From Candidatus Eiseniibacteriota bacterium (GTDB lineage Bacteria; Eisenbacteria; RBG-16-71-46), in NCBI GenBank assembly GCA_963717935.1, contig CAVQXP010000004.1, forward strand, positions 1,184,001 through 1,248,000: 64,000 nucleotides of DNA, read 5' to 3'. The notes beneath the pieces were generated by a model. The model was not told the origin of the DNA and did no database searches. It saw only the letters and a program-made list of their open reading frames with translations. Positions 2 to 53,565 of this stretch are shown here, piece by piece. Position 1 is the first letter of the stretch; every line of letters begins with the position of its first letter. Made by a program: the position numbers and the translations under genes.

Positions 2-685
2 CGGCAGTCGCGCCTCAATTTCAGCCTCGACCAGCGCCTGCAGGCCAAGCTCAAGCGCGGCGGAAACATCACGCGCCTGGACAACCTGCTGTCTTGGAGC
101 ATGGGGGGCTCGTACGACTTCCTCTACCGGGATCACGGGCTCGAGCACCCGCTCTCGAACCTCTCCTCGGGCGTGCTCCTGCAGCCGCCGGGTTACATGA
201 ACGCGAACCTGAGCTGGGTGACCGACGTCTACAATCCGCACCCGGTGCGCTCGCTCGGCTACAACCTGGGCCTGAACCTGGACAGCGGCGGGCTCAGGCG
301 CACCTCGCCCGACCTGCCGGTCGAGCAGCAGCCGGCGGCGGGCTCTGGCGAGAACTGGTCGCTGGGCTTCGCCTACTCCTACTCGGGCGGCTATGCGTGG
401 GACACGGAGTGGTCCAGCACGAAGACCGCGAACCTGGTGAGCCGCTACCAGTTGAGCCCGGCCTGGGCGTTCGAGTACGCCGCCTCCTTCGATCTCACGC
501 GCCACAGCGTGCAGACCCAGCGTTTCGTGCTGTCGCGCGACCTGCATTGCTGGCAGGCGGTCTTCACCCGGCTGTTCGTGGCGGGCGGCGAGGCCGAGTA
601 CTACTTCCGCATCGGCGTGAAGGACCAGAAGGAGATCTACCTGGAGCGCGGCACCCGCGTGGGCAGCCTCGGCGGGATCCAGTAG
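2..685 (+). CDS. lptD: LPS-assembly protein LptD, C-terminal part (5' end outside window)
   Basis: Open frame from window start; aromatic-rich beta-strands; RDLHCW motif typical of LptD_2-type C-termini. Confidence 0.75.
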
Positions 686-758
686 GACTTCCGCGCGCGA
701 TCCCGCAGCCGAGCGGCGCATCCAACCATCAACGGCCGCGCCCTCACCTGTGGGAACC

Positions 759-3121
<2,363 letters not shown>

Positions 3122-3125
<4 letters not shown>

Positions 3126-3283
3126 CGGGTCTCGGCCGCCTGATCGTGACCGTGCTCGGCCTGGGCCTGATCGTGGCCGTGAACCTGTACTTCTTCGCCC
3201 GGCCGCGGGACGGACGCCGGAAGCCGGTGATGCAGCCGGAGCGTGCCGGGGAGACCGGGGCGGGGCCCGCCGACCAGGCTTGA
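3122..3283 (+). CDS. Small single-TM protein (53 aa), coupled to copA
   Basis: ATGA overlap with copA stop; [27 protein letters not shown] hydrophobic segment. Confidence 0.6.
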
Positions 3284-3332
3284 CCGGGCCGGGACAAGAA
3301 CCTCCTCCCCCCGCGCCAGCATCCAAGCAGCC

Positions 3333-3773
3333 ATGCGCCCGCCCGCCTTCCTCCTTCGTCGCGCCCTGACCGCGATCCTGGCGGTCAGCCCGCTCGTCGC
3401 GAGCGCCGACCTCTGCACCGTCGGCGCGCTCACGGGACGCGCGGAGCTGGCGTGCTCGATGGAGCCCGGCGCGCCCGCCTGCCGGGTGGCGCCTGCGCCG
3501 AAATGTTCGCACTGCGCTCCGGCAGCCCCGGCGCGCGAGACCGCGCGTTCGCACGGTCCGACCTGTTGCGACTTGCGCCCGCAGGCCGCGGCCGTGGCCG
3601 GGCAGCCGATGCTCGCCGCGCCGCTGCCGATCGCGCATCCCGCGGTGGTTTCGGCGGTCGTGGCCCCCGGCGTCGTCACGGCGTCAGCGGTCCGTGTTGC
3701 GCCCGACGACGGCCGCGCTCCTCCGGGCGACGTCCCGGCCCCCCTCTCTCCCCGCGCTCCTCCGCTCGCCTAG
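3333..3773 (+). CDS. Cys-rich exported leader protein with C-terminal RAPP motifs (CruR/CutF/DUF2946-like)
   Basis: Signal-like N-terminus, CSHC and CC motifs, GRAPP and SPRAPPLA* at the end, directly upstream of a heavy-metal RND operon. Confidence 0.7.
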   Translation: MRPPAFLLRRALTAILAVSPLVASADLCTVGALTGRAELACSMEPGAPACRVAPAPKCSHCAPAAPARETARSHGPTCCDLRPQAAAVAGQPMLAAPLPIAHPAVVSAVVAPGVVTASAVRVAPDDGRAPPGDVPAPLSPRAPPLA

Positions 3774-3905
3774 TCTCCAGCCGTCCCCCGGGTCTCGACC
3801 TTCATCGGGCCCGGCCCGCGCGCATCCTGCGCTCGGGGTCCCTGCGGCCTTCGCGTGCCCTGCAGAGCGCAGCGCACCGCGGGGCCCGGCGAGAGGAGTG
3901 ACGTC

Positions 3906-5204
3906 ATGAGCCCACGTACGGCGCTGCTCGCCGTGCTGCTCGTCCTGGCCGGCGTCCGGCCGGCGCTGGCGCTCGAGCTCGAGAGCGCGCTGCGCGAGGA
4001 CGGGCGGATCGCGCCGTCTCCGGACGAGCTCGCCGCGCTGGCGCTCCAGCGCGCTCCCTCCCTGGCGGCGCTCGCGGCGCGCGTCCAGGAGGCGCGGGAG
4101 ATGGTGCGGCCGGCCGGGGCGCTTCCCAACCCGATGGTCGAGCTCATGATCCAGGACATCGGCTTCCCCAGGTGGACCGTCGGCGAAGAGGGCATGTCGA
4201 TGATCGGCCCGCAGGTCACCCAGGGCATCCCCTTCCCGGGCAAGCGCGGCGCCCGCCGGCGGGCCGCGCAGGCAGACGTCACCGTGAAGGCGAGCGAGCT
4301 CGAGCTGCTCCGGAGGGAGGTGGCCCTCGACATCCGGAGGCTCTGCGCCCGGCTCTATGCGCTCGACCAGGAACAGCAGGCGCTTTCCTCCGGACACGAG
4401 CTGCTCGAGATGCTGGCGGCCACGGTGCGGGAACGTTACAGCGCCGGCGTGGCGGAGCAGGAAGCCGCGATCAAGGCGCAACTCGCGGTATCGCGGCTGG
4501 ACGAGCGGCTGGACGACCTGGTCGCGGAACGCAGGGCCCTGGTGGCCTCCGTGAACCGGTACCTGGACCAGCCGGGCGACGCACCGCTCGGACGCGTGAC
4601 GACATTGCCCGAGCCAGGCGCGCCGCCCACGCCCTGGGAGGCCGTCGTCATGGAGAACTCCCCCGAGATCGTCCTGCGCCGGGCCGAAGTGCAGGCTGCG
4701 GAGCGCAGACTCCGGGTGGCCCGGCTGGAGCTCAGGCCCGACCTCCTCGTCGGCGCGGGTCTTGGCTTCCGGGGCGGCAAGGACCCGGCCGTCACGCTCC
4801 GGCTGGGCATGGACCTGCCCCTCTGGAGCGCGCAGCGGCAGATGCCCATGTTCCGCGCGGCTGGACAGGACCTCGAGGCGTCACGTCAGGTGCTGCGCGA
4901 CGCCGAAGCCCGGGCGCGGGCCGAGACGGCGCGTCTGGAGGCGGACTGGCGGAGAGCGGCCAGACAGGTGACGCGCTACGCGCAGGCCATCGTGCCCCGG
5001 AGCAGCCTGGCGCTCGATGCGGCGCGCTCCAGCTACCTCGTGGGCCGGGGTGACTTCTCCGCGGTCATCGAGGACTTCAACCTGTGGCTCGAGGCCCGGA
5101 CCGGGCTGGCCCGGCGCGAAGCCGAGCGCTTCACGACGTGGGCCGAGCTGCAGGCCATCATCGGCTCGAGCGGTCCCGGAGACGACGGCAGGAGGGGACG
5201 ATGA
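3906..5204 (+). CDS. TolC/CusC-family outer membrane efflux protein
   Basis: SD AGGAG; signal peptide; LPNP and QxIPFPGK motifs; helical OEP pattern; first gene of the RND operon. Confidence 0.9.
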   Translation: MSPRTALLAVLLVLAGVRPALALELESALREDGRIAPSPDELAALALQRAPSLAALAARVQEAREMVRPAGALPNPMVELMIQDIGFPRWTVGEEGMSMIGPQVTQGIPFPGKRGARRRAAQADVTVKASELELLRREVALDIRRLCARLYALDQEQQALSSGHELLEMLAATVRERYSAGVAEQEAAIKAQLAVSRLDERLDDLVAERRALVASVNRYLDQPGDAPLGRVTTLPEPGAPPTPWEAVVMENSPEIVLRRAEVQAAERRLRVARLELRPDLLVGAGLGFRGGKDPAVTLRLGMDLPLWSAQRQMPMFRAAGQDLEASRQVLRDAEARARAETARLEADWRRAARQVTRYAQAIVPRSSLALDAARSSYLVGRGDFSAVIEDFNLWLEARTGLARREAERFTTWAELQAIIGSSGPGDDGRRGR

Positions 5205-6679
5205 TCCATCTCGAACGAAGGACCCGGCGACGGAGGTTGTCGCTCGTCCCTCTCGCGGTCGGGCTCCTGGCGATCGGGCTCCTGGCGATCGGGACGCTGG
5301 CGGCCGGCTGCGGCAGGAACAGCGGCAGCGGCAAGACCGGCAGCCAGCAGCAGCAGCAGTACCACTGCCCCATGCATCCGACCTACGTGACCGACCGGCC
5401 GGGAGACTGCCCCATCTGCGGGATGAAGCTCGTGCCGATCGGACCGAAGGAGCCGAAGGTCCCTGCCGGGCCGTCCGCCCCGGCGGGCGCTGCGACCGCG
5501 GCCGCCGGGGCGCGCCGGATCCTCCACTACCGGAACCCGATGGACCCGTCGGTCACGTCGCCGGTGCCGATGAAGGACCCGATGGGGATGGACTACGTGC
5601 CGGTCTACTCGGACGAGGTGCCCGCGGGCGCCGGCGTGGAAGGCCATGCCCCGGTGGAAGTGAGTCCCGAGGAGTCGGGACTCGCCGGCCTTCGGACCAC
5701 CGTGGCCCGAAGGGGAACGCTGGCTCGCGCCATCCGCACGGTCGGTGAGGTCAAGGCCGACGAGACGCGGGTCAGCAAGGTGCACTCCAAGATCTCGGGG
5801 TGGGCCGAGCGGCTGTTCGTCAGCTTCACCGGCCAGGCCGTCCGCAAGGGCCAGCCGCTGCTGAGCATCTACTCCCCCGAACTGCTGGCGACCCAGGAGG
5901 AGTTCCTGCGCGCGCGCGAATCGGCGGCGCGGTTCGCGCAGAACGACATGCCCGAGGTGCGGCGTGGCGGCGCGGATCTGCTGGAGGCGGCGCGACGGCG
6001 GCTCCTGCTGTTCGACGTGCCGCAGAGCTTCATCGACACGCTGGAGAGGACGGGACAGCCGCAACGCGCGGTCACGCTCGAGGCCCCCGCCTCGGGCTTC
6101 GTCACCGCGAAGGACGTCTTCGCGGGCGCCCGGATCGAACCCGGTGTCACGCTGTTCACGATCACCGACCTGTCGAAGGTCTGGGTCGAGGGTGAGGTCT
6201 ACGAATACGAGGCCCCGCTCGTCCGGCTCGGACAGAAGGCCCGGGTCACGCTCGCCTACGACCCGTCGAGGGCATACACGGGACGGATCCGTTACATCTA
6301 CCCGTACCTGAACACGGACACCCGCACGCTTCGGGTCCGCTTCGAGTTCGACAACCCCGGCCTGGCCCTGAAGCCCGGCATGTACGTCGACGTCGAGCTC
6401 GACGCGCAGGTGGTCCAGGGCGTCCTGGTCCCCGAGGCGTCCATCCTGGACACCGGCCCCCGGCAGATCGTCTACGTGATGACGGGCGAGGGGCGCTACG
6501 AGCCGCGCGAGGTGACCATCGGGCTCCGGAGCGGCGGCACGGCGCAGGTCCTCTCGGGGGTGAAGGCGGGCGAGGTGGTCGTGGACCGGGCCAACTTCCT
6601 GCTCGATTCGGAGTCCCGCCTCCGGGCCGCCATCGGGCGCTCGGCCGTCGCCGACACCGCCGGAAGTGGCGCGCGATGA
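5201..6679 (+). CDS. cusB: CusB-like RND periplasmic adaptor with heavy-metal-binding domains
   Basis: YHCPMHP..CPICGM and YRNPMDP..DPMGMDYVP domains; LKPGMY; FLLDSES. Confidence 0.9.
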   Translation: MIHLERRTRRRRLSLVPLAVGLLAIGLLAIGTLAAGCGRNSGSGKTGSQQQQQYHCPMHPTYVTDRPGDCPICGMKLVPIGPKEPKVPAGPSAPAGAATAAAGARRILHYRNPMDPSVTSPVPMKDPMGMDYVPVYSDEVPAGAGVEGHAPVEVSPEESGLAGLRTTVARRGTLARAIRTVGEVKADETRVSKVHSKISGWAERLFVSFTGQAVRKGQPLLSIYSPELLATQEEFLRARESAARFAQNDMPEVRRGGADLLEAARRRLLLFDVPQSFIDTLERTGQPQRAVTLEAPASGFVTAKDVFAGARIEPGVTLFTITDLSKVWVEGEVYEYEAPLVRLGQKARVTLAYDPSRAYTGRIRYIYPYLNTDTRTLRVRFEFDNPGLALKPGMYVDVELDAQVVQGVLVPEASILDTGPRQIVYVMTGEGRYEPREVTIGLRSGGTAQVLSGVKAGEVVVDRANFLLDSESRLRAAIGRSAVADTAGSGAR

Positions 6680-9600
6680 TCCAGAAGATCATCGAGTTCT
6701 CGGCCCGGAACCGCCTGCTCGTGCTGCTGGGCGTGGCGGCGCTCTGCGTCTTCGCGTTCTACACCCTGAAGCAGATCCGGCTCGACGCGCTGCCCGATCT
6801 CTCCGACACCCAGGTCATCGTCTACTCGCGCTGGGACAGGTCCCCCGACATCATCGAGGATCAGGTCACCTATCCCGTCGTCACGGCGCTGCTGGGGGCG
6901 CCTCGCGTCAAGGCGGTTCGCGGCTTCTCGGACTTCGGCTACTCCTTCGTCTACGTGATCTTCCAGGATGGCACCGATCTCTACTGGGCGCGCTCCCGGG
7001 TTCTGGAGTACCTGTCCAAGATCCAGGCGCGGCTCCCGGAGGGCGTGCACACCGAACTCGGGCCGGACGCGACGGGGGTGGGCTGGGTCTTCCAGTACGC
7101 CCTGGTCGACCGTTCCGGCAAGCACTCGCTCGACCAGCTCCGCTCGTACCAGGACTGGACGCTCCGCTACGCGCTCCAGATGGTGCCCGGTGTCGCCGAG
7201 GTGGCCTCCATCGGCGGCTACGTCAAGCAGTATCAGATCACCGTGGACCCCGACCGGCTCGCCGCGTTCGGCCTGCCACTCTCCACCGTGGTCGAGGCCA
7301 TCCGGAACTCCAACAGCGAGGTCGGCGGCCGGCTCATCGAGTGGAGCGGCACGGAGTACATGGTGCGGGGCCGCGGCTACTCGAAGAGCGTCGAGGACTT
7401 CGGAAGCATCGTCGTGAAGACCGGCGAGGGTGGCGTGCCGGTGCTCCTGAGGGACGTGGCGCGGGTCGGCCTGGGTCCCGAGATCCGCCGCGGCGTGTCC
7501 GACCTGGATGGGATGGGCGATCACGTCGGCGGCATCGTGGTCATGCGCCACGGTGAGAACGCCCTGAACGTGATCAAGCGGGTCAAGGAGAGGCTCCACG
7601 ATCTCGGGCCGTCGCTTCCCGCAGGGGTGGAGATCGTCACCACCTACGACCGGGCGGACCTCGTCACCCGGGCCATCGGGACGCTGAAGCACGAGCTGTC
7701 GATCGAGATGATCATCGTCTCGCTGGTCATCCTGCTCTTTCTCTGGCACATCCCGTCGGCCATCGTGCCCATCCTGACCATCCCCATCGCGGTGCTCCTG
7801 TCCTTCATCCCGCTCTTCTACTTCGGCGTCTCCGTCAACATCATGTCCCTGGCCGGCATCGCGATCTCGATCGGCGTGCTGGTGGACGGGGCCATCGTCG
7901 AGGTGGAGAACGCCTACAACAAGCTCCATCTCTGGAACGCCGGCGGCCGGAAGGGCGACTTCCACGCCGTCCGGCTCGAGGCGCTCAAGGAGGTGGGGCC
8001 GGCGGTCTTCTTCTCGCTGCTGGTCGTCGCGGTGTCGTTCCTTCCCATCTTCGCCCTGGTGGACCAGGAAGGGCGGCTGTTCAAGCCGCTGGCCTACTCG
8101 AAGAACCTGACCATGGCGCTGGCGGCGTTCCTGGCCATCACCCTCGATCCGGCCATGCGGATGATGTTCACCCGCATGGACCCGTTCGTCTTCAAGCCCC
8201 GATTCCTGGCCCGGCTCGCCAGCCACGCCTTCGTGGGCACCTACCATTCCGAGGAGAAGCACCCCATCAGTCGCGCCATCTCCAGGGTGTACGACCCCGC
8301 CTGCCGCTGGGTCCTGCGGCGCCCCCGGACGACCATCCTGATCGCCGTCGCGATCGTCGCCGTGAGCATCCCCGCCTATTTCAGGCTCGGCTCGGAGTTC
8401 ATGCCCCCGCTCAACGAAGGCACGATCCTCTACATGCCGACGACCCTGCCCGGGATCGCGGTGGCCGAGGCCCAGGCGCTCCTGCAGACCCAGGACCGGG
8501 TCCTCAAGTCGTTCCCCGAGGTGGAACGGGTCTTCGGCAAGGCGGGCCGCGCCGAGACCTCCACCGACCCCGCGCCCTTCTCGATGATGGAGACGACGGT
8601 GATCCTGAAGCCGCCGCAGGAGTGGCGTGGCAAGGAACGCTGGTATTCCTCCTGGGCGCCCGGCTGGCTCAGGGGATTCCTCCGCCCCATCTGGCCCGAC
8701 CGGATCTCGTGGGATGAGCTGGTCGAGGAGATGGACCGGAAGCTGCAGATCCCGGGCGTGACCAACGCCTGGACCATGCCGATCAAGGCCCGCACCGACA
8801 TGCTGACGACCGGGGTCCGCACCCCGATCGGGATCAAGATCTTCGGCTCGGATCTCGGGGAGATCGAGAAGCTGGGTGGCCAGCTCGAGGGCCTGATGCG
8901 GCAGGTGCCCGGCACCCGCAGCGTCTACGCCGAGCGGGTGACCGGCGGCTACTTCCTCGACTTCGAGCCCCGGCGGGACCGGCTCGCCCGCTACGGGCTC
9001 ACCATCGCGGATGTCCAGAGGGTGCTCATGTCGGCCGTGGGCGGCGAGAACGTGACCACCACCATCGAGGGCCGTGAACGCTACCCGGTCAACGTGCGCT
9101 ACCCCCGGGAGCTCCGGGACAACGTGGACCGTCTGCGAAGGGTCCTGGTGAAGACCCCCGCGGGACCGCAGGTGCCGCTGGCCCAGCTCGCCGACATCGA
9201 GCTGGTCAGCGGGCCGGCGATGATCCGGGACGAGAACGGCTTCATGGCGGGCTACGTCTACGTGGACATGACCGGCCGGGACATCGGCGGCTACGTGAAG
9301 GAGGCCAGGAAGCTCGTCCGGGAGAAGCTGACTCTGCCCCCCGGCTATGCGCTGCAGTGGAGCGGCCAGTACGAGAACATGATCCGCGTGAGCCGACGGC
9401 TCAAGGTCGTCGTGCCCATCACGCTGGTGCTGATCTTCGTACTGCTGTTCGCCAACACCCGCTCGGCGTTCAAGACGCTGGTCGTGATGCTGGCCGTGCC
9501 GTTCTCCGCCGTGGGCGCCATCTGGCTCTTCCACTTCCTGGGCTACAACGTGTCCATCGCGGCGTGGGTGGGGATGATCGCGCTCCTGGGCCTGGATGCG

Positions 9601-9930
9601 GAGACGGGCGTGTTCATGCTGCTCTTCCTGGACCTCTCCTACGACGAGTACCGCAGGAAAGGGCTGCTGCGGACCCTGGCCGATCTGGACGAGGCCATCC
9701 TGCACGGGGCGGTCAAGCGGGCGCGACCCAAGATGATGACCGTCTTCGCCGCCTTCATGGGCCTGCTCCCCATCATGTGGTCGACGTCGGCCGGGGCGGA
9801 CGTGATGAAGCGGATCGCCGCGCCCATGATCGGCGGCCTGGTCACGTCGTTCCTGCTCGAGCTGCTGGTCTACCCGGCGATCTACAAGCTCTGGAAGCTG
9901 AGGACGGAACTGAAGGGGCTCACCCCATGA
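6676..9930 (+). CDS. cusA: CusA/CzcA-family heavy-metal efflux RND transporter
   Basis: LDALPDLSDTQV, LGPDATGVGW, EFMPPLNEG..LYMP, RPKMMT, MKRIAAPMIGG. Confidence 0.95.
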   Translation: MIQKIIEFSARNRLLVLLGVAALCVFAFYTLKQIRLDALPDLSDTQVIVYSRWDRSPDIIEDQVTYPVVTALLGAPRVKAVRGFSDFGYSFVYVIFQDGTDLYWARSRVLEYLSKIQARLPEGVHTELGPDATGVGWVFQYALVDRSGKHSLDQLRSYQDWTLRYALQMVPGVAEVASIGGYVKQYQITVDPDRLAAFGLPLSTVVEAIRNSNSEVGGRLIEWSGTEYMVRGRGYSKSVEDFGSIVVKTGEGGVPVLLRDVARVGLGPEIRRGVSDLDGMGDHVGGIVVMRHGENALNVIKRVKERLHDLGPSLPAGVEIVTTYDRADLVTRAIGTLKHELSIEMIIVSLVILLFLWHIPSAIVPILTIPIAVLLSFIPLFYFGVSVNIMSLAGIAISIGVLVDGAIVEVENAYNKLHLWNAGGRKGDFHAVRLEALKEVGPAVFFSLLVVAVSFLPIFALVDQEGRLFKPLAYSKNLTMALAAFLAITLDPAMRMMFTRMDPFVFKPRFLARLASHAFVGTYHSEEKHPISRAISRVYDPACRWVLRRPRTTILIAVAIVAVSIPAYFRLGSEFMPPLNEGTILYMPTTLPGIAVAEAQALLQTQDRVLKSFPEVERVFGKAGRAETSTDPAPFSMMETTVILKPPQEWRGKERWYSSWAPGWLRGFLRPIWPDRISWDELVEEMDRKLQIPGVTNAWTMPIKARTDMLTTGVRTPIGIKIFGSDLGEIEKLGGQLEGLMRQVPGTRSVYAERVTGGYFLDFEPRRDRLARYGLTIADVQRVLMSAVGGENVTTTIEGRERYPVNVRYPRELRDNVDRLRRVLVKTPAGPQVPLAQLADIELVSGPAMIRDENGFMAGYVYVDMTGRDIGGYVKEARKLVREKLTLPPGYALQWSGQYENMIRVSRRLKVVVPITLVLIFVLLFANTRSAFKTLVVMLAVPFSAVGAIWLFHFLGYNVSIAAWVGMIALLGLDAETGVFMLLFLDLSYDEYRRKGLLRTLADLDEAILHGAVKRARPKMMTVFAAFMGLLPIMWSTSAGADVMKRIAAPMIGGLVTSFLLELLVYPAIYKLWKLRTELKGLTP

Positions 9931-9946
9931 TCCGAGGAGGGAAATC

Positions 9947-10291
9947 ATGAAGATGAACACGAGGACCTTGGCGACGGCCGCGTTGCTGATGCTGGCGGTG
10001 GGTTGCTCGAGCGCGGGTGCGGCCCGCGAACAGCGTGTGAAGATCGCGGTGACCGAGAAGGGCTTCGAGCCGGCCTCCGTGACGGTGCAGTCGGGCCGGC
10101 CCGTCACGCTGCTCGTCACGCGCCGGACCGATCACACCTGCGCGACCGGGCTCGTGCTCAAGACGCACGGCATCGACCAGAAGCTGCCACTGGGGAAGAC
10201 GGTGGCCATCCGCTTCACGCCCGAGCGGCCCGGCGAGCTGACCTATGCCTGCCCGATGGACATGTACCACGGGAAGATCGTGGTGCGGTGA
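9947..10291 (+). CDS. Cupredoxin-domain lipoprotein (CupA-like)
   Basis: SD GAGGAGG; lipobox LAVGC; GFEP, C and YACPMDM copper-ligand pattern. Confidence 0.8.
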   Translation: MKMNTRTLATAALLMLAVGCSSAGAAREQRVKIAVTEKGFEPASVTVQSGRPVTLLVTRRTDHTCATGLVLKTHGIDQKLPLGKTVAIRFTPERPGELTYACPMDMYHGKIVVR

Positions 10292-11747: not shown

Positions 11748-12566
11748 TCAGTCCAGTCCCAGCTCCTCGAGGTCGCCCTCGTCGAGGCCGAGCAGGTGCC
11801 CCACCTCGTGCAGCACGGTGGTGCGCACCTCGCGTGCCAGCTCCTCGCGATTCGTGCAGAACCGCAACAGATTGCGGCGGAAGAGGTAGATCGCCTCGGG
11901 CACGGCAGGCAGGTCGAGATGGCTGCGCTCGAGCAGGCTGCGTCCGACGAAGAGTCCGAGCAGATCGGGCGGCAGGGGCGGGTCCTCGGCCGTGAGGATC
12001 TCGCGCCGCGGCAGCTCGTCCACCAGGACCGGCACCTCGTCGAGCTTCCGGCGGAAGGCCTCGGGCAGCTCCTTCAGACCTTCCGCCACCAGCGCGTGAA
12101 ACTCCTGGTCGGGGATCTCGAGCGGCGGGGTGAAGGCCACCGGGTCGATGGCCCGGGCCTCGGCCGCATGCTTCAGCGCGTGCTGCGGCTGGCCGAGGTA
12201 CTCGTAGATGCGGGCCAGCAGCTCGTGTGCCTCGGCCAGGTCGGGGGTCACGGTCACGGCGCTCAGGGCGTCGTCGCGCGCCTGCTCGAAGCGCACCAGT
12301 TCGAAGCGGGCGACGGCGCGCAGGTAGAAGAACAACGCGGGGTCGGCCGAACGCTCGGCGCCCTCCAGAGTCGCGAGCGCTTGTTCGGGCTCGCCCTCGT
12401 CGAGACAGACGGCGGCCTCCACGATGCGCACGTCGGGATGGCCGGGGCGCGCGCGCAGGAGCGCGTCCACGGCTGCGCGGGCCTGCTCGACCTCGCCCTG
12501 GTCGAGCAGATCCCAGGCCTGGTTGACCTGCTCCCATTCGGTCTCGGACAGCGTGGCGTAGCTCAT
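11748..12566 (-). CDS. TPR-containing Zincin_1-type metallopeptidase
   Basis: N-terminal TPR-like helices; LLGLF.G, IYLFRRN, HEVGH. Confidence 0.8.
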   Translation of the reverse strand: MSYATLSETEWEQVNQAWDLLDQGEVEQARAAVDALLRARPGHPDVRIVEAAVCLDEGEPEQALATLEGAERSADPALFFYLRAVARFELVRFEQARDDALSAVTVTPDLAEAHELLARIYEYLGQPQHALKHAAEARAIDPVAFTPPLEIPDQEFHALVAEGLKELPEAFRRKLDEVPVLVDELPRREILTAEDPPLPPDLLGLFVGRSLLERSHLDLPAVPEAIYLFRRNLLRFCTNREELAREVRTTVLHEVGHLLGLDEGDLEELGLD

Positions 12567-12804
12567 CGCAAGGGGCCTCCGTGCGCGCAATCTAGCGCGC
12601 CCGGGCCGTATACGCTACCCGCGTCGATCGGCGGTCCCCTGGGTGGCCGGGTGGCCGGCGCCGGCGCTGGCGCACCATTCGTGCGGGCCGCGCCGCGCCC
12701 GCGCCCGGCCGTCCGGCTCGCCGCTCGCGTGCCCGCACGTCAACAGGATGTCAATCGGGCTCGCCGCGGTGGCGCATGGCGGCAGCACGACGCGGGCCAC
12801 ATCC

Positions 12805-12834
12805 TTGACGCCTGCGCGCGGCGGACCGTAGACT
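12805..12834 (+). promoter_or_regulatory. Sigma70-type promoter for the selenoprotein gene
   Basis: TTGACG-N18-TAGACT. Confidence 0.5.
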
Positions 12835-12906
12835 CAACATGAGTGATGTCTTCCGCTACGCCGCTGCAATGAATCCCACTTTGCCCGCGCCAGGAGACCC
12901 CGTCGC

Positions 12907-14324
12907 ATGAAGACCCTGCTGCCCCGGATTCTCGCCACCGCGCTGCTCGCGGCCATCACCTGGATGCTGCTGGCCGGCGCCAGCGCGCCCCGGGGGAATC
13001 CCCTCGAACCGGACAAGCTCGTCATCCTGTCCACGAACGACGTGAAGGGCAAGACCGATCCCTGTGGCTGACACACCCCCAAGGGGGGCTCGCCCGGCGG
13101 GCGGGCTTTGCGGACAGCATCAAGGCGGGCTATGGCCAGGTCGTGTGGGTGGACGCGGGCGGTTTCTTCCCCGAGGACGACCTGCACAAGGACGTCTCCT
13201 GGTTCCTGATGGACGCCATGCAGGTGATGGGCCTCGACGCGGTGGGGATGAGCGAGAAGGAACTGCGCTTCGGGCTGAGCTACCTGAAGGCGCAGCAGAA
13301 GCGCACGCAGCTGCCGATGGTGTGCGCCAACCTCTACGAGAAGAAGACCTCGAAGCTGCTGCTGGCGCCCTATGTGCTGAAGCAGGTGGGCACGGTCAAG
13401 GTGGGCATCTTCGGGGTCATGAGCAACGTCGTGGACCTGGGCCCGGCGCGGGACTCGCTGCGGGTCGAGGAGCCCTCGGCCGCGGCCAAGCGCACGGTCG
13501 CGGAGCTGCGCAAGAAGGGCGCGACGGTGGTGGTGCTGCTCTCGCAACTGGGCAAGGTCGAAGGCGAGGATCTGGTGACGGCGGTGGACGGCATCGACGC
13601 GGTGATCCTGGGCCACAGCGTGCCGCTGTTGCAGAAGGGGCGCCTGATCAAGACCACGGTGGCCTGCTACGGCGGGGAGCAGGGCCAGTACATCGGGCGC
13701 ACGCTGCTGACGCTCGATCCCCAGCGGAAGGTGACGAGCGGGGAGAACGAGACCTTCATTCTGGGGCCCGATATCGCGGACAAGAAGGAGATGGCTGCGC
13801 TGGTGAAGGGCTTCAACGACAGCTTCAACGAGAAGCTGCAGAAGCTGCAGAAGGAGAGGGCCGCGAAGGACGCCGAGAGGGCGGCGCAGGGCGTGCCCGA
13901 GCACTACCTGGGAGGCGAGATCTGCGCGCGCTGTCACGCAGCCGAGACGGCGCAGTGGAAGACCACGAAACACGCGCAAGCCTGGGAGACGCTGGTGGCG
14001 GCGAAGCAGGATACCGTCGCCCGCTGCATCGGCTGCCACGTGGTGGGCTTCCAGCAGCCCGGCGGGTTCAAGGACCAGGCGAGCAGCCGCAACCTGGCGG
14101 GCGTGCAGTGCGAGAGCTGCCACGGCATGGGCTCCATGCACGAGGCCTTCAACACCAAGCCGCGCGGGGTCACCGAGCGGGCCTGTCGTGTCTGCCACAC
14201 GAAGGAGATGAGCCCCGGGTTCGACTACGCCCTGTACCAGCCCCACATCAACCACAAGGGCACGGGGACGAAGCAACCGCTGCCCGGCTCGCCCATGAGG
14301 AACCTGTGGCCGACAGGCAAGTAG
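12907..14324 (+). CDS. Probable selenoprotein: exported UshA-like (metallophosphatase-fold) domain with CGU motif fused to a tetraheme cytochrome c; in-frame TGA 13069-13071 and a 1-nt deletion in the G-run 13083-13088
   Basis: SD AGGAG, ATG 12907, signal peptide, LVILSTNDVKGKTDPCG*HTPK; adding one G gives GGLARR..WVDAGG, continuous with ORF 13143-14324; four CxxCH (CARCH, CIGCH, CESCH, CRVCH). Confidence 0.8.
13085..13109 (+). promoter_or_regulatory. Candidate bacterial SECIS hairpin
   Basis: GCTCGCCC-GGC-GGGCGGGC stem-loop (extendable by G-U pairs); G-led apical loop about 25 nt after the UGA. Confidence 0.6.
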
Positions 14325-14340
14325 CGCCGGATCGGATGAA

Positions 14341-14381
14341 CGTCGCGGAGCGGGCCCTGCGGGCCCGCTCCGCGACGCTTT
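14341..14381 (+). terminator. Intrinsic terminator
   Basis: Perfect 17-bp stem CGTCGCGGAGCGGGCCC-tgc-GGGCCCGCTCCGCGACG, then CTTT. Confidence 0.7.
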
Positions 14382-14577
14382 CGGCCCCGCCGCATGGGCC
14401 GGAAGCCCCCGGAACGCAGAACGCAGGTTCGCCGCCGTGCCCTGATGGCCTTGCTTCGGGACTCCGGGGCAAGAGGCTCGACACCGTCCCGCGGACGGGC
14501 TCATCCGCCTGTGGGTGAGTGCCGGAGGTGCCTGGAGTCGTTGACCTGCCCTCGAGTGGATGCTCCAAGGCATTCAG

Positions 14578-28584: not shown

Positions 28585-28700
28585 GTCCTGGCCCGGGTCG
28601 CGCCGGGGGCCTGCCCGCGGGCGGGCCCCTCGGCATTTGAGCCCGTGCGGCGCCGGCCGCCCGCCTTGCCTGGCCGCTCTTCCGGGGGCACTCTGACGCC

Positions 28701-29852
28701 ATGATCTACTTCGACCACAACGCCTCCACCCCCGTGCGTCCCGAGGTGGTCGAGGCCATGTGCGCGGCGCTCGCCGACGTGTCCGCCAACCCGTCGAGCC
28801 TGCACCGCGAGGGCCAGCGCGCCCGTGCCGCGGTCGAGCGCGCCCGCGAGCAGGTGGCCGCGCTGCTCCATGCCCGCCCCGACGACGTGGTCTTCACGAG
28901 TGGCGGCACCGAGGGCGATCACGCCGGTCTGATCGGCGCCGCCTGGGCCCTCGAGCCGCAGGGCAGGCGCATCGCCTTCCCGGTGATCGAGCACCACGCC
29001 GTGCACGGCGCGGCCGCGGTGCTCGCGAGGTCGGGCTTCGAGGTGACGCACCTGCCGGTGCTCGCGGACGGCTGGGTGCCGCCGGCGGCGGTGGACGCGC
29101 TGCCCGCGGGCACCACGGTCGTCGCCGTGATGCTCGCCAACAACGAGACGGGCGTGCTCCAGCCCGTGGCGGAGATCGCGCGACGCGCCCGCGGACGCGG
29201 CCTGCGCGTCCTGTGCGACGCGGTGCAGGCCGCGGGCAAGATCCCGGTGGACTTCGAGGTCCTGGGCGTGGACTACCTGATCGTCTCGGGGCACAAGCTC
29301 GGCGGACCCAAGGGCGCAGGCGCCCTGATCCTGCGGCCGGGGGCGCCCTTCGAGCCGCTCTTCCGCGGCACCGGCCACGAGCGCGGCCGGCGCGGCGGCA
29401 CCGAGAACGTGCCCGGCATCGTCGGACTGGGACTGGCCGCCGAGCTGGCGGCGCGCGAGCAGCGGACCGGGGCCGTGCGCCTGCTCGCACTGCGCGAGCG
29501 CTTCGAGCGGGGCCTGCTCGCGGCCGTGCCCGACGCCGTGGTGCACGGCGCGCGCGCCCCCCGGTTGCCCAACACCGTGAACGCGTCGTTCCCGGGGGCG
29601 CGCAGTGACCACCTGCTGATGGCGCTGGACGCGCGCGGCATCGAGGTCTCGGCCGGCGCGGCGTGCGCCAGCGGCGCGGTGGAGCCCTCGCCGGTGCTCG
29701 CGGCCATGGGCGTGCCCCGCGAGCTGGCCGTCTGCGCCCTGCGTTTCTCGATGGGGCGCACCACCACGGAAGCGGAGGTGGAGGAGGTCGTCGCCGCGGT
29801 GGGGGAGGCCGTGCGCGCGGTGCGGGCGGTGCCGGGTGGGGGTGGCGCGTGA
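28701..29852 (+). CDS. iscS: Cysteine desulfurase (IscS/NifS type)
   Basis: YFDHNAST, FTSGGTE, NNETG, DAVQ, SGHK, SAGAAC. Confidence 0.92.
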   Translation: MIYFDHNASTPVRPEVVEAMCAALADVSANPSSLHREGQRARAAVERAREQVAALLHARPDDVVFTSGGTEGDHAGLIGAAWALEPQGRRIAFPVIEHHAVHGAAAVLARSGFEVTHLPVLADGWVPPAAVDALPAGTTVVAVMLANNETGVLQPVAEIARRARGRGLRVLCDAVQAAGKIPVDFEVLGVDYLIVSGHKLGGPKGAGALILRPGAPFEPLFRGTGHERGRRGGTENVPGIVGLGLAAELAAREQRTGAVRLLALRERFERGLLAAVPDAVVHGARAPRLPNTVNASFPGARSDHLLMALDARGIEVSAGAACASGAVEPSPVLAAMGVPRELAVCALRFSMGRTTTEAEVEEVVAAVGEAVRAVRAVPGGGGA

Positions 29853-30995
29853 GCGAGCGGCTCCGCGTGCTGGTCGCGATGAGCGGCGGCGTGGATTCGG
29901 GCGTGGCCGCCGCGCTCCTCGGCGGGCAGGGGCACGACGTGACCGGCGTGACGCTCAAGCTCTGGTGCCACGGCCAGGCGCCGGCGGCGCCGCGGGCCTG
30001 CTGCACGCTCGAGGCCATCGAGCAGGCGCGCGGGGTCGCGCGACGGCTGGGGTTCCCTCACTTCGTGGTCGAGGCCGGGGAGGTGTTCCGCGCGCGCGTG
30101 GTGCAGCCGTTCCTCGACGACTATGCCGCGGGGCGAACGCCCTACCCGTGCGCGCTGTGCAACCGGCACCTGAAGTTCGGCGACCTGCTCGCGCGCCTGG
30201 AGTCGCTCGGTGCCGACCGGCTGGCGACCGGCCACTACGCGCGACTCGAGCGGCTCGCCGACGGCACGCACGCGTTGCGGAGGGCGGCCGATCCGGCGAA
30301 GGACCAGTCCTATGCGCTGGCGCTCACCCCCCGCGCCGCATTGCCGCGGCTGCTCTTCCCGCTGGGCTCGCTCACCAAGAGCGAGGTGCGCGAGCACGGC
30401 CGGCAGCTCGGGCTCGCGCTCTGGGACCGGCCCGAGAGCCAGGACCTGTGCTTCGTGCCCGACGGTGACTACGCCGGGTTCATCACGCGGACCCTGGGCG
30501 AGACCTGCGGCACCGCGCCCGGGCCGTTCGAGGACCCCGAGGGCCGCAGGCTCGGCACGCACCGCGGCATCATCCACTACACCGTGGGCCAGCGCCGCGG
30601 GCTGGAACTCGCGGCGGCCGAACCGCTCTACGTGCTCGCGGTGGACGCCGGGCGCAACGCCGTGGTGGTGGGCCCGCGCGCCGCGCTGGAGGCGCCGGGG
30701 CTCGTCACCGGGGCCGTCAACTGGCTCACGAGCGCGCCGCCCGCGGACGGCACGCGCGCGGTGGTCCAGATCCGCTACCAGCACCGGGGCGCGGCGGCGA
30801 CGCTCCATCCGCGCGCGGACGGAGCGTGCGAGGCACGATTCGACCAGCCCCAGGCCGCCGTGACGCCCGGGCAGCTGGCCGTGTTCTACGACGGCGACCG
30901 CGTGCTGGGCGGCGCGGCGATCGAGCGCGCGTGGCAGGGCGACGGCTCCGGTCGCGCCCGGTCGCGTCCCCGCGGAAGCCCCGGCCGCCCGATGA
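29849..30995 (+). CDS. mnmA: tRNA-specific 2-thiouridylase MnmA (end approximate; as given it runs in frame into the next gene)
   Basis: AMSGGVDS, PCALCN, ATGHY, KDQSY, ESQDLCF, TVGQR, TPGQ. Confidence 0.92.
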
Positions 30996-31903
30996 ACGCC
31001 GCCGCGCCGCTTCCCGTCCGCTCGCTGGACTCCTGCGTCGCCTGCGGCAGCGCCACGCTCCATCCGCTGCCGCTGGTCTACGAGTTCCACGGCCGGTTCC
31101 CGCTGGTCGAGTGCGGGGACTGCGGGCTGCGCTTCCTGCGCGTGCAGCCCGCGGGAGAGGGGCTCGCGGCGCTCTACTCGGCCGACTACTTCACGAGCGA
31201 CTTCCGCTGCGGGCGCAGCGCGGTGGCCTACTCCTCCGAGGAGCCGTTCCGCGCCGAGAACGCGAGCCTGCTCGAAGCGTTCGAGCGGCTCGGGCCGCGC
31301 GGCCGGCTGCTCGAGCTGGGCAGCGCCGGCGGCTGGCTGCTCAAGCACGCGCGCGAGCGCGGCTGGCAGGCGCAGGGCGTCGAGCTCTCCGCCGCAGCGG
31401 TGGCGCAGGCGCGCGCGCTCGGCCTCGAGGTGTTCCAGGGCGACCTGCTCACGGCCCCGCTGCCGGCAGACACGTTCGACCTGATCTACATGGGCGATGT
31501 GCTCGAGCACGTGCCCGACTGCCGCGCGGTGCTGGTCGAGGCGGCGCGCCTGCTCAAGACCGGTGGCCATCTCTACCTGCGCGGGCCCATCACCACCCAC
31601 TCGCTCGCGCGCCGCCTGGCGCTGGCGCTCTACGGCGCTGCGGGCCGCGCGATCGTGCTGCGCGAGCCGCCCTATCACCTCTGGGAGTTCACGCCGGGGC
31701 CGCTGGAGCACCTCTTCGCCTCGGCGGGACTCGAGGTGATCACGGCGCGGCAGAGCAAGATCCCGCCCGGCCGGGCGCACGGCGAGAAGTCGGCGCTCCA
31801 GCGGCTGGCGATGGGCGCGGTGGACGCCCTCAACCTGCCGCTCACCCGGCTGCTCAACGTCGCCGGCGACCGCATCGTGATGGTGGGCCGGAAGCAGGCG
31901 TGA
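30992..31903 (+). CDS. Class I SAM-dependent methyltransferase with N-terminal Zn ribbon
   Basis: CVAC..CGDC, LLELGSAGG, DVLEH, HLWEF. Confidence 0.8.
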   Translation: MNAAAPLPVRSLDSCVACGSATLHPLPLVYEFHGRFPLVECGDCGLRFLRVQPAGEGLAALYSADYFTSDFRCGRSAVAYSSEEPFRAENASLLEAFERLGPRGRLLELGSAGGWLLKHARERGWQAQGVELSAAAVAQARALGLEVFQGDLLTAPLPADTFDLIYMGDVLEHVPDCRAVLVEAARLLKTGGHLYLRGPITTHSLARRLALALYGAAGRAIVLREPPYHLWEFTPGPLEHLFASAGLEVITARQSKIPPGRAHGEKSALQRLAMGAVDALNLPLTRLLNVAGDRIVMVGRKQA

Positions 31904-34429: not shown

Positions 34430-35469
<1,040 letters not shown>

Positions 35470-35473
<4 letters not shown>

Positions 35474-36282
35474 GTACCCTCGCCCTCAACCTGCGCGCGA
35501 CCTGGGGGCGGGCCTACGGGCGCCTGGTCGGCGCCTTCCGCGAGCCGACCTGGCTCCTCACCGACGCCATCCTCCCGAACCTCGGCATGCTCGCCTTCGT
35601 CATGCTCTACCGGGCGCTGGGCGCGCCGCGCTCGTTCGAGGCCCTGGCCGTGGTGGGCGGGCTGCTCGCCACCTACTGGATCAACGTGCTGTGGGGGATG
35701 GGGGCGCAGTTCTACTGGGAGAAGCAGAGCGGCCAGTTGCAGCTCTACTTCGTCGCCCCCTGCTCGCGCATGGCCATCCTCTCGGGCATGGCGCTCGGCG
35801 GCTTCCTGCTGACCACGGCGCGCCTGGCGTTCGGGCTGTTCCTCGGCTTCGTCGTGATGGGCGTGCGGGTCGAGCCCTTCAGCCTGCCCGCGCTGCTCGG
35901 CGTGTTCGCGCTCACCATGGTGGCGCTCTACGCGCTGGGCATGGTGATGGCCTCGCTGTTCCTGCTCTGGGGGCGCGAGGCCTACCACCTGAGCAACGCG
36001 CTCTACCAGCCCGTCCAGTTCCTCTCGGGGCTCTACTTCCCGCTCAAGACGCTCGGGCCCCTGGGCATCGTCGCCGCCGGACTGGTGCCGCTCGGGCTCG
36101 GCGTGGACGCGCTGCGGCAGGTGCTGCTCGGCGCGGGTGCCCACGGGCTCATGCCGCTGCGCTTCGAGATCGCCCTGCTGGCCGCGCTCGGCGCGGTCTT
36201 CCTGTGGCTCGCGCGCGTCGCGCTCGCCTACCTCGAGTCGCTCGCCAAGCGCGAGGGCCGCCTGACGCAGAGGTGGCAGTGA
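35470..36282 (+). CDS. ABC-2 permease
   Basis: About six TM helices, EK..G.L, LSGLYFP. Confidence 0.85.
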
Positions 36283-37122
36283 GAGTGCTGGTCGCGCGCC
36301 TGCGCGCCTCGGCCTGGCTCGGGTTGCAGATCGAGTCCAACTGGACCGACCCGTTCCTGTTCACGGCCTACGCCATCACCCACCCGCTCGCCACCGCGCT
36401 GATCCTGGCCGGCATGTACTGGGCGGTGGGCGGCTCGGCCCAGGGCGCCGACACCTTCCGCGGCCTCTACCTGGGCAGCGCGTTCCACAACTACGTCGTC
36501 ATGGTGCTGGTCGGCATGGGCTGGATGATCGTCGAGGAGCGCGAGGAGTTCGAGACCCTCAAGTACGTCTACACCTCGCCCATCGGCATGTTCAACTACC
36601 TGGCCGGCCGCTCGCTGGTGAAGCTGGCGCTCGCGACCCTCAGCACCGTCGCTGACGCTCGCGGTGGGCTGGTTCCTGGTGGGGCTGCGCTGGGACTGGG
36701 CGGCGGTCCACTGGCTGCCGCTCGTCGCAGCACTCGGGCTCGGGGTGTTCGCCACCGTCTCGCTCGGCTTCTTCGTCGCCGGCTTCGCCATGCTCATGCC
36801 GCGCGCGGCGTTCACGCTGAACGACGGTATCGCGGTGGCGCTCTACCTGCTGTGCGGCGTGATCTTCCCCGTGGACCTGCTGCCGCGCGTACTGCAGTGG
36901 ATCGCACTCGCCCTGCCTTTCACCTGGTGGTACGAGGCGCTGCGCCGCTTCCTGCTCGGCCACGGCTCGAGCGCGCTGCTGAACGCGTGGTCCGACGGCG
37001 CGCTGATGCTCTGGCTGTTCGCCACCACGCTGGTCTTCAGCGTCGCCGCGCACCTGGCGTACCTCGCGCTCGAGCGCCGCGCGCGGCAGTTGGGGCGGCT
37101 GGACCAGACGACGCTGTTCTGA
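36279..37122 (+). CDS. ABC-2 permease (frameshift near 36650)
   Basis: EEREEFETL..Y.SP in the first frame, CGVIFP..LLP..LQ..A..LP in the second. Confidence 0.8.
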
Positions 37123-37205
37123 GGCGGGGGCGGTCAGGGGCGTGGAGGCCCGGAGCGGCGCAGACGTGGCCGAGGCCCGTCGGCAAACCGGGGCCGGAGG
37201 CCCGT

Positions 37206-37234
37206 TTGAACCCCCCCGCGTAAGCCGCTATAGT
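37206..37234 (+). promoter_or_regulatory. Sigma70 promoter of the tRNA operon
   Basis: TTGAAC-N17-TATAGT with GC-rich discriminator. Confidence 0.65.
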
Positions 37235-37266: not shown

Positions 37267-37352
37267 GGAGGGATGGCCGAGTGGTTGAAGGCGGCGGTCT
37301 TGAAAACCGCTGAGCGAAAGCTCCGTGGGTTCGAATCCTACTCCCTCCGCCA
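37267..37352 (+). tRNA. tRNA-Ser (anticodon TGA)
   Basis: GGAGGGA/TCCCTCC acceptor, GCGGT-CT-TGA-AA-ACCGC, long variable arm, TTCGAAT, CCA. Confidence 0.95.
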
Positions 37353-37360
37353 GTACGTTT

Positions 37361-37452
37361 GGAGAGGTGGCCGAGTGGCTGAAGGCAGCCGCCTGCTAAG
37401 CGGTTGACTGGGTAAAACCGGTCCGGAGGTTCGAATCCTCTCCTCTCCGCCA
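37361..37452 (+). tRNA. tRNA-Ser (anticodon GCT)
   Basis: GCCGC-CT-GCT-AA-GCGGT, long variable arm, CCA. Confidence 0.95.
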
Positions 37453-37473
37453 GCACCGGGTCCAGAAGCACGC

Positions 37474-37550
37474 GCGCCCTTAGCTCAATTGGATAGAGCA
37501 TCTGACTACGGATCAGAAGGTTGGGGGTTCAAATCCTCCAGGGCGCGCCA
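37474..37550 (+). tRNA. tRNA-Arg (anticodon ACG)
   Basis: GCGCCCT/AGGGCGC acceptor, TCTGA-CT-ACG-GA-TCAGA, CCA. Confidence 0.95.
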
Positions 37551-47907: not shown

Positions 47908-47998
<91 letters not shown>

Positions 47999-48274
47999 CT
48001 TTGTGACGCCGCTCGGCGGCCGTCCGCCTCCCACGCGGCCCAGCCCGCGCTCGCCTCCGCGCCGCGCCGCTCGCCCACGACGCCGATCGCGGCCGCGGTC
48101 TTCCTTGGCGTCCTCCGGTCGCTCTTCCATGGCTCGGACTCGGGCCGTTGCGCACCTCCCCGGGGGCGCTCATGGACGCCCGAGCGGCGTCAAGCACGCG
48201 CCTCCCGCTCGGTTTGCCCGCTGCCGTGGGCCGTGGTAACGGTTCCGCCGCCGGTGAGCCCGGCGCAGAGGTAC

Positions 48275-48365
48275 GGAGAGATGTCCGAGCGGCTGAAGGA
48301 GCACGATTGGAAATCGTGTAGGCGCTAATACCGCCTCGAGGGTTCGAATCCCTCTCTCTCCGCCA
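48275..48365 (+). tRNA. tRNA-Ser (anticodon GGA)
   Basis: CACGA-TT-GGA-AA-TCGTG, long variable arm, CCA. Confidence 0.95.
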
Positions 48366-49061: not shown

Positions 49062-49137
49062 GGGGATGTAGCTCAGCTGGGAGAGCACCTCGTTCGCAAC
49101 GAGGGGGTCGGCGGTTCGAATCCGCTCATCTCCACCA
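49062..49137 (+). tRNA. tRNA-Ala (anticodon CGC)
   Basis: G3:U70 pair, CCTCG-TT-CGC-AA-CGAGG, CCA. Confidence 0.95.
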
Positions 49138-49144
49138 TCTTCTT

Positions 49145-49243
49145 GGGCCAGGCCCAGCGCAACCCGAACTTGTGAACCCCGCGAGGACCGGAAGGTAGCA
49201 GCGGTAAGCATGAAACTCGGGAGTGCCGCTGTACCCCTGGCCC
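49145..49243 (+). ncRNA. ffs: Signal recognition particle RNA (small type)
   Basis: GGGCCAGG/CCTGGCCC closing stem; domain IV GAGG.CCGGAAGG.AGCA; canonical position before dnaX. Confidence 0.9.
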
Positions 49244-49350
49244 TTACCCGAAGCCGTCGAGAGACCGCCTAGCCCAGCCCGGAGTGGGGATCCGTGCGGA
49301 GCACGGGTCAGGCGACCTCCCGGCGGCTTATGGGTAGAATGGGGATTGCC

Positions 49351-51528: not shown

Positions 51529-51543
51529 CCCCCGGCCCCCGAC

Positions 51544-52144: not shown

Positions 52145-52178
52145 GCTCCCGCATGCCGCCCCCCGGGCGTACCCGGCC

Positions 52179-53383: not shown

Positions 53384-53565
53384 CCCCGGTCCGCGCATCG
53401 CCGAGGCCGGGCCGCCACGGTCAGGCCCCCGGCGGCCGCTCCGCCGACCGCGGAGCCCGCGCAAGTTTGTCTTGTCGCAGCGGTTCGGGTGTGGTACCGC
53501 TCCTCGCGGTTCACACGGACGTGCCCGGAGTCTGAACCGGCCAAACTCATTTGGCGGGGGAAGCC

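Follow-up and report, generated by a model that had tools for sequence, protein, structure and literature searches.

At positions 12907 to 14324 on the plus strand of a 64,000-nucleotide (nt) stretch from Candidatus Eiseniibacteriota bacterium (GenBank assembly GCA_963717935.1, contig CAVQXP010000004.1, positions 1,184,001 to 1,248,000; the whole stretch is called the window below), an open reading frame (ORF) with a predicted signal peptide runs into a TGA codon, and a second frame carrying four CxxCH motifs follows one base out of register. The question raised by this locus is whether the two pieces are one gene, as a prediction made earlier from the letters alone had proposed (hereafter the original prediction), and how the TGA and the frame break are to be read. 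Our comparison with related loci makes it quite probable that they form a single gene for an exported protein of about 472 amino acids (aa), in or at the edge of the NCBIfam family NF041198, that the TGA is decoded as selenocysteine (Sec), and that the frame break is an assembly or sequencing indel. The elements of the gene are as follows.

12892..12896, plus strand: Shine-Dalgarno-like AGGAG, 10 nt 5' of the ATG (direct sequence reading)
12907..12987, plus strand: start codon ATG 12907 and predicted signal peptide of the Sec (secretion) type, with MKTLLPR, a hydrophobic core and ASA (called by eye)
12988..13068, plus strand: first part of the mature protein, ending ...LVILSTNDVKGKTDPCG, in the frame of 12907; NF041198 positions 6-43, 25.9 bits
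13069..13071, plus strand: in-frame TGA, taken as selenocysteine (C-G-U motif) from the aligned sites of related loci
13083..13089, plus strand: frame break, one base short, at the third base of the second Gly codon, junction of the G6 run with CTC (gap in the MAFFT alignment)
13088..13106, plus strand: SECIS-like hairpin made of the arms 13089-13095 and 13099-13105 around the loop GGC (13096-13098); the window has one more G-C pair, 13088/13106
13086..13790, plus strand: remainder of the UshA/5'-nucleotidase-like N-domain with degenerate metal motifs, in the second frame (3' limit approximate)
13791..13900, plus strand: long linker helix (KEMAALVKGFNDSFNEKLQKLQKERAAKDAERAA...), mapped by homology from helix 296-328 of the L019 structure model (approximate coordinates)
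13923..14321, plus strand: tetraheme cytochrome c554-like domain and C-terminal tail (PF13435; NF041198 positions 345-519; PDB 1bvb), with the stop codon at 14322-14324

Base-level reading confirmed the start of the gene as it had been proposed, that is, the Shine-Dalgarno sequence, the ATG at 12907, the signal peptide, the codons TGT-GGC-TGA at 13063-13071 and the HTPK behind them. Frame 1 from 12907 reads MKTLLPRILATALLAAITWMLLAGASAPRGNPLEPDKLVILSTNDVKGKTDPCG up to the TGA and continues as HTPKGG, giving the motif DPCG-TGA-HTPKGG, and the N-terminal pattern of 12907..12987 also heads the upstream part of intact relatives. The second frame, from 13086, reads GLARRAGFADSIKAGYGQVVWVDAGGFF... 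and is free of stops until 14322-14324. Translation bore out the downstream ORF (13143-14324, listed with a GTG start and 393 aa), its four CxxCH motifs (13923-13937, 14025-14039, 14109-14123 and 14184-14198) and the joined length, one added base giving a product of 472 aa. A tblastn search with two full-length cysteine (Cys) homologues (P0117 and P0100) returned two high-scoring segment pairs, in frames +1 and +3, which overlap at PKGG (13077-13089), and found no second member of the family anywhere in the 64 kb. An antisense ORF of 579 codons (12834-14573, minus strand) spans the whole gene; it is a typical high-G+C artefact and not a gene, and relatives of it in 70 loci reflect nothing but the conservation of the sense strand.

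The case for selenocysteine comes from comparison across loci. A protein search with the downstream piece found 891 homologues, and among the best 120, from which the length statistics are taken, 118 are 312-423 aa long, begin after the TGA and have no N-terminus, much as the original prediction had expected of standard gene callers. The other two are full length (477 and 474 aa) and are Cys forms, reading PCGCHIPKGGLARIA and PCGCSIPKGGLARQA. Scanning genome contigs for relatives gave 76 loci, each with a stretch of up to 10 kb on either side, 51 of them titled Candidatus Eisenbacteria. A script located 92 N-terminal sites of the family in 73 of the 76 loci, the remaining three (L049, L071 and L075) being cut at a contig end. 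The codon at the site was distributed as follows.

TGA: 68 sites
TGC: 20 sites
TGT: 4 sites

A TGA copy is present in 68 loci and five loci have Cys copies only, the 24 Cys copies being spread over 22 loci. Every one of the 68 TGA copies continues in the same frame, PCG*HTPKGGLARRASF... (HTPKGGLARRA), and each has an upstream start codon and a signal-peptide-like N-terminus, with a predicted full length of mostly 450-496 aa. In 47 full-length proteins, D45, G48, P52, C53, G54, C55 (the Sec column), P58, G60, G61 and R64 are invariant. The locus thus has what is expected of a bacterial selenoprotein gene, a UGA in frame, aligned with Cys in homologues and with coding conservation on both sides; a TGA/Cys column in 92 sites, flanked on both sides by protein conservation, is more than chance. 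These alignments support the reading, made in the original prediction, of TGA 13069-13071 as a selenocysteine codon.

Several features of the wider family were seen in the same loci. In 17 of them (L002, L003, L005, L009, L017, L018, L021, L025-L027, L029, L032, L033, L048, L068, L072 and L073) one or two Cys paralogs lie 1.5-8 kb from a Sec copy; the window and its closest relatives, L019 and L010, have a Sec copy only within the stretch available. The Cys paralog of L007 (about 11603) loses its frame directly after PKGGL, and the Sec copy of L025 (9914-12916) is open through 1001 codons. Eisenbacteria-type copies also occur in bins of other phyla or classes (L014, L024, L042, L043, L046, L052, L057 and L060; labels Methylomirabilota, Terriglobales, Verrucomicrobiia, Acidiferrales, Saccharimonadaceae, Udaeobacter and Limnocylindria). 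Seven TGA-type copies from these bins nest among Eisenbacteria in the protein tree, and the tree did not include L060, which has only Cys copies. Either mis-binning or gene transfer could account for the placements in other bins.

A bacterial selenocysteine insertion sequence (SECIS) is a stem-loop that follows the UGA closely on its 3' side and has a G in its apical loop. The original prediction had placed a hairpin with a G-led loop about 25 nt past the UGA, and in the window a GGC loop indeed starts 25 nt after the A of the TGA. To compare it between loci we used an alignment of the 68 TGA loci with the window (alignment A2), in which the DNA 3' of the TGA is strongly conserved and columns 37-47 are invariant; pairing was counted on its 64 distinct rows. 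RNAalifold on this alignment gives a 7-bp stem, columns 34-40 with 44-50, around the loop GGC, so that a stem-loop with a G in the loop does lie near the UGA; the stem begins 18 nt past the TGA in the relatives and 17 nt past it in the window. All 448 of 448 cells (100%) pair, and at the pair 36:48, which no row breaks, 42 rows have CG and 22 have GC. None of 500 shuffles reached the observed pairing or covariation, and control positions obtained by sliding the stem had 15-52% of their cells paired. The swap at 36:48 is synonymous, its two bases being the third positions of a Leu codon and of an Ala codon, and it amounts to three changes on the protein tree (66 sequences), at least two of them forced by well-supported branches. 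The third-codon columns 39, 42 and 45 show no variation across the 69 TGA-type rows but vary among the 24 Cys copies, in which only 64.3% of cells pair, a value at the level of the shuffles (463 of 500 as high). Complete pairing, the compensatory swap and the restriction to TGA copies support a SECIS-like element just behind the UGA, as had been predicted. A second small hairpin, CCC..GGG (columns 20-33, in two registers), showed no covariation; its pairing of 84-89% is accounted for by the Pro and Gly codons that it covers. An extension of the main stem through column 33 was dropped, columns 33 and 51 being uncorrelated by eye.

The remaining obstacle to a single gene is the frame break. In alignment A2, MAFFT places the only gap of the window at column 33, which is the last base of the second Gly codon, and the window is the sole gapped sequence of the 69, none of the 68 relatives being broken here. 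The original prediction had repaired the frame by adding one G to the G6 run (13083-13088). One added base does restore the PKGGLAR of full-length homologues, but its identity as G did not hold up: in the 68 TGA relatives column 33 is C in 32, T in 32, A in 3 and G in 1, and among those that share the C of the window at column 21 it is T in 27, A in 3 and C in 1. Since the relatives mostly have C or T here, the missing base is probably not G, and C, T or A is the likelier choice.

The window holds other damaged genes, which we found by Pfam scans of stop-to-stop ORFs, a plot of G+C at third codon positions by frame being too noisy. The dnaX gene (49273-51226) is split, with its AAA+/delta2 and lid domains in frame 49273-51525 and domain III in frame 50042-51223; the break lies near 50060-50085, away from any long homopolymer, and YbaB then follows in the first frame. 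A split near 51757-51790 divides recR (51529-52144), whose helix-hairpin-helix and zinc finger are in frame 51529-52179 and whose Toprim and C-terminal parts are in frame 51755-52141. A CNNM/CBS gene (52041-53535) is split near 52320-52335, with profile positions 3-40 in one frame and 39-179 in another. In all three the Pfam profile runs on across the split, and, with all three breaks inside about 2.3 kb, the assembly may be of poor quality locally. In a second ABC-2 permease gene (36290-37122), only the C-terminal half (profile positions 113-208) is in frame 36622-37119, and the N-terminal half seems to be in frame 34977-37223 with a break near 36650. By frame arithmetic each of these four breaks looks like the gain of one base or the loss of two, and none is at a run of five or more. 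Relative L010 backs the frames of the window over about 9.4-24.4 kb, the target gene excepted; L019 was rejected as a frame reference, since it appears to be broken itself in the OEP/CusB and CusA region (596-7219). With four other genes of the 64 kb frame-broken, an assembly indel is the likeliest cause of the break in the target gene. Most likely, the one-base break at 13083-13089 is thus an assembly or sequencing indel, and the organism would make the full-length protein. In an assembly with frame-breaking indels, single frameshifts should not be taken as biology.

Alternatively, the one-base deletion could be real, either as a recent pseudogene of this strain or as a minority variant of the population picked up by the assembler. 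The sequence as given is frame-broken, after all, and the break adjoins the G6 run, where replication slippage is plausible too. We regard this explanation as unlikely. No TGA-type relative is broken at the site, and the 412 codons 3' of the break are open throughout and keep 84-89% identity with close relatives, which an old pseudogene would hardly show. Signal peptide, TGA and hairpin are undamaged as well. Moreover, at least four other genes in the 64 kb are broken, including recR and dnaX, which is essential, so that assembly noise is the simpler explanation.

A second alternative is that the TGA is a true stop, the gene consisting of the downstream ORF only (GTG 13143, 393 aa) and the upstream ORF of 54 codons being separate or noise. 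This is how the databases have it: the database form of the window protein has 391 aa (P0003), 118 of the best 120 homologues are short forms of 312-423 aa, and NCBI names such truncated forms 'multiheme c-type cytochrome'. The contig of the database form is 2,138,985 bp long. However, the short form would begin inside a conserved fold (...VDAGGFF) and would have no signal peptide, although a c-type cytochrome must be exported to receive its heme. Full-length Cys forms (474 and 477 aa) exist, all 24 Cys copies run through the column, and in 68 loci the upstream signal peptide and an STxDVKG...PCG motif are in frame with the TGA, which is followed by a hairpin specific to TGA copies. Taken with this evidence, a true stop is very improbable.

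Still less probable is that the sequence is correct and that the frame is restored by a programmed -1 ribosomal frameshift on G_GGG_GGC (zero frame AAG-GGG-GGC), with the hairpin as stimulator. A heptamer of the X_XXY_YYZ type is present at 13083-13089 in the right phase, a stable hairpin follows it, and the slipped product, K-G-G and then L-A-R-R, is identical to the protein of the relatives. But none of the 68 relatives requires a shift, and the four other breaks in the window have no such heptamer. Stimulators of -1 frameshifting usually lie 5-9 nt from the heptamer, and the hairpin is only 0-1 nt behind it. Sec read-through and a shift within 20 nt would also multiply two inefficient events, which leaves the double recoding, with Sec at UGA 13069-13071, a -1 slip at 13083-13089 and one hairpin serving both, equally improbable.

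An assembly indel in an otherwise intact Sec-decoded gene therefore remains our preferred reading, and a number of observations weigh against parts of it. The other four breaks look like an extra base and not a missing one, and three of them cluster about 37 kb away; they show that the assembly is noisy and are no proof of an indel at 13083-13089. The stability of the hairpin is unremarkable: it folds at -25.6 kcal/mol in the window, with a z-score of -1.8 (9 of 200 shuffles as good), and z-scores are -2.1 for L019 and -0.30 for L001 (75 of 200). In a sequence of 72% G+C such z-scores are unconvincing, so that the case for the hairpin is one of comparison between loci. Even there, covariation is seen in one of seven pairs, with two or three events, and four pairs never vary. 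Rfam contained no SECIS match for the window: the whole window gave only transfer RNAs (tRNAs) and the signal recognition particle (SRP) RNA at the gathering score, and positions 12900-13300 gave only noise at E values up to 10. Neither the 64-kb window nor the 76 loci contain a tRNA-Sec, and E. coli SelA, SelB and SelD had no tblastn match in either set, nor did Pfam scans show any of these proteins; the Sec trait of the source genome, which the original prediction implied, is deduced from the gene itself. Finally, the curated cut-off of NF041198 is 275 bits, and the two pieces of the window, which were scanned separately, as well as the closest relative, L019 (272.5 bits), fall slightly below it. 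Among other intact relatives, L001 scores 287.2 bits and two Cys forms score 265.4 and 264.4; since these scores straddle the cut-off, the Eisenbacteria-type clade lies at the border of NF041198.

A place of the gene in NF041198, or at its edge, is nevertheless supported by what the profile covers. NF041198.1 (UshA_like_PCGU, 'UshA-like (seleno)protein', an equivalog of 519 positions) matches both pieces of the gene, in agreement with the proposed UshA-like family and heme fusion. Its match to the downstream piece (237.4 bits) extends to profile position 519 of 519, with residues 214-382 aligned to positions 345-519, so that the heme region belongs to the curated profile. The P-C-G-(U/C) motif is found after the first beta-strand motif, as the family definition has it, and a C-terminal multiheme region, here with four CxxCH, lies within the profile. 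The Eisenbacteria-type proteins share with the family the same place of P-C-G-U/C, the UshA-like N-domain, the C-terminal multiheme part and the occurrence of both Sec and Cys forms. Unlike the profile of 519 positions, they are about 470-480 aa long and match it in two stretches, with a gap at about profile positions 272-345, and the window copy differs from its relatives in being frame-broken.

The family has a place in the literature as well. An entry 'COG0737, UshA-like, CxU' stands in a table among 51 previously described selenoprotein families (Zhang & Gladyshev 2008, PMC2398784), tables in a 2022 review (PMC9312934) and a 2026 review (PMC13188914) have a row 'UshA-like protein, CxU', in the latter with NF041198, and the latter also tabulates NF049981, 'UshA-like (seleno)protein family 2', with the motif CxxU. 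The family is thus already curated and in print, with both the CxU motif and the heme tail, and the window gene would be a border-scoring member of it. A full-text literature search for Eisenbacteria together with selenocysteine found no paper. NF049981 likewise combines a UshA-like scaffold with Sec, but its motif is CxxU and its profile has 262 positions; membership of the window protein in it was rejected because of this different motif and a weak match (the window piece scores 16.2 bits and L019 32.3 bits, where the cut-off is 140).

The predicted fold indicates what kind of protein this may be. We modelled the L019 protein, the closest intact relative (474 aa), with AlphaFold2, passing U as C, with an alignment of 47 rows and no hemes. 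The mean predicted local distance difference test (pLDDT) score was 82.7. Most of residues 61-300 exceed 90, the block with the CGU loop stands at 72, and confidence is only moderate over the heme domain, whose 10-residue blocks average 49-85. Foldseek against the PDB matched the model to the 5'-nucleotidases of human (CD73), cobra venom and Thermus (2z1a), with E of about 1e-23, a template modelling (TM) score of about 0.5 and about 310 columns, and these matches cover the N-terminal domain and the long helix 296-328. A profile search of the PDB gave 2z1a at E 1.1e-23, with nucleotidase matches stopping by about query position 323, and cytochrome c554 (1bvb) at 4.7e-19 over positions 334-412. 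Pfam PF13435 matches the heme part at 3.3e-16, and the NCBIfam model of SoxB is matched at 2.1e-15.

Despite this fold, the metal site has been lost. The metallophosphoesterase superfamily is defined by the motifs DxH, GD, GNHE and H...GH, and we take the five motifs of 2z1a listed here to be its metal and catalytic motifs; the printed alignment sets them against the window family as follows.

HTNDTHA in 2z1a: sttDvkG in the window family
DAGD in 2z1a: daGg in the window family
GNHEF in 2z1a: gekel in the window family
SHLG in 2z1a: sqlg in the window family
GGHSH in 2z1a: vGrnv in the window family

D45 and D83 are retained, but an invariant G85 takes the place of the bridging Asp, and the PCGU insertion falls in the loop directly after the first motif. 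The protein is therefore like the 5'-nucleotidases UshA and CD73 (2z1a, 1ush, 4h2i) and the related SoxB in the fold of its N-terminal domain and in its long linker helix. It differs from the 5'-nucleotidases in its motifs (DxH to DxK, GD to GG, GNHE to GEKE, SHLG to SQLG, GGHSH to GRNVP), in the Cys-Gly-Sec insertion and in having four hemes in place of the nucleotide-binding C-domain. The defining motif set of a functional 5'-nucleotidase or UshA is absent, as is the C-terminal nucleotide-binding domain, the Pfam and NCBIfam matches behind the helix all being to cytochromes, and a Pfam scan of a full-length relative returned cytochrome families only and no phosphoesterase family. The window protein is probably not a phosphoesterase. 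Its heme part resembles Nitrosomonas cytochrome c554 (1bvb; PF13435), a tetraheme c-type domain with four CxxCH; cytochrome c554 is a free electron carrier, whereas here the domain makes up the C-terminal portion of a larger protein that resembles an enzyme.

A model consistent with these features is that of an exported redox enzyme with its own heme chain. The Sec-type signal peptide, called by eye, would take the protein across the membrane, and export would be needed because a c-type cytochrome gets its hemes outside the cytoplasm, where the four hemes would be attached. During translation, UGA 13069-13071 would be decoded as Sec in a SelB-dependent manner, aided by the conserved 7-bp hairpin. 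The body of the protein has the N-terminal metallophosphoesterase fold of 5'-nucleotidases with its classical metal and catalytic motifs replaced, and the invariant Pro-Cys-Gly-Sec in the loop right behind the first motif would form the redox site. A long helix leads on to the four-heme cytochrome c554-like domain that stands in place of the nucleotide-binding C-domain, and the Cys/Sec site, of the selenenylsulfide type, may swap electrons with the heme chain. A Cys/Sec redox site coupled to hemes is the likeliest chemistry that we infer from motifs and fold, and that this mechanism is drawn from motifs and fold counts as a further point against it. The distant kinship with SoxB hints, and only hints, at sulfur compounds as the substrate.

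The gene is under-called nearly everywhere, since 118 of the 120 best homologues are missing the part in which the signal peptide and the Sec site lie, and the NCBI name for the truncated forms, 'multiheme c-type cytochrome', makes for systematic mis-annotation. In Candidatus Eisenbacteria, a phylum known mainly from metagenome bins, members of the family abound, and 68 of the 76 loci have a Sec copy. With a 5'-nucleotidase fold that has lost its metal site but gained a Cys-Gly-Sec loop and a four-heme wire, the protein is a clear target for enzymology. We consider the interest of the locus to be modest and to lie in the uncharacterised chemistry of the family, its mis-annotation and its abundance in a little-known phylum.

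The genes around the target recur in the related loci, namely a divergent Zincin/TPR gene (11748-12614) in 58 loci, a DUF4097 gene in 37, a gene for an unnamed membrane protein in 47 and a VTT-domain gene in 40; their recurrence looks like general synteny and offers no clue to the function. Further upstream, positions 621-10291 hold a Cus-like metal efflux cluster with a P-type ATPase carrying an HMA domain, an outer-membrane factor, a CusA-like pump of the resistance-nodulation-division type, a small cupredoxin and a CusB-like adaptor with a heavy-metal-binding domain. At 29609-31903, MnmA (tRNA 2-thiouridine synthase) and a class-I methyltransferase domain share one stop-to-stop ORF of 764 codons, just behind a NifS/IscS-like cysteine desulfurase gene (28641-29852); this ORF could be a true fusion or the result of a lost stop. 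A tRNA-Ala (CGC) and, immediately behind it, the small SRP RNA (49062-49245) precede dnaX-ybaB-recR, and five further tRNA genes, four for Ser and one for Arg, are located at 37267-37550 and 47908-48365.

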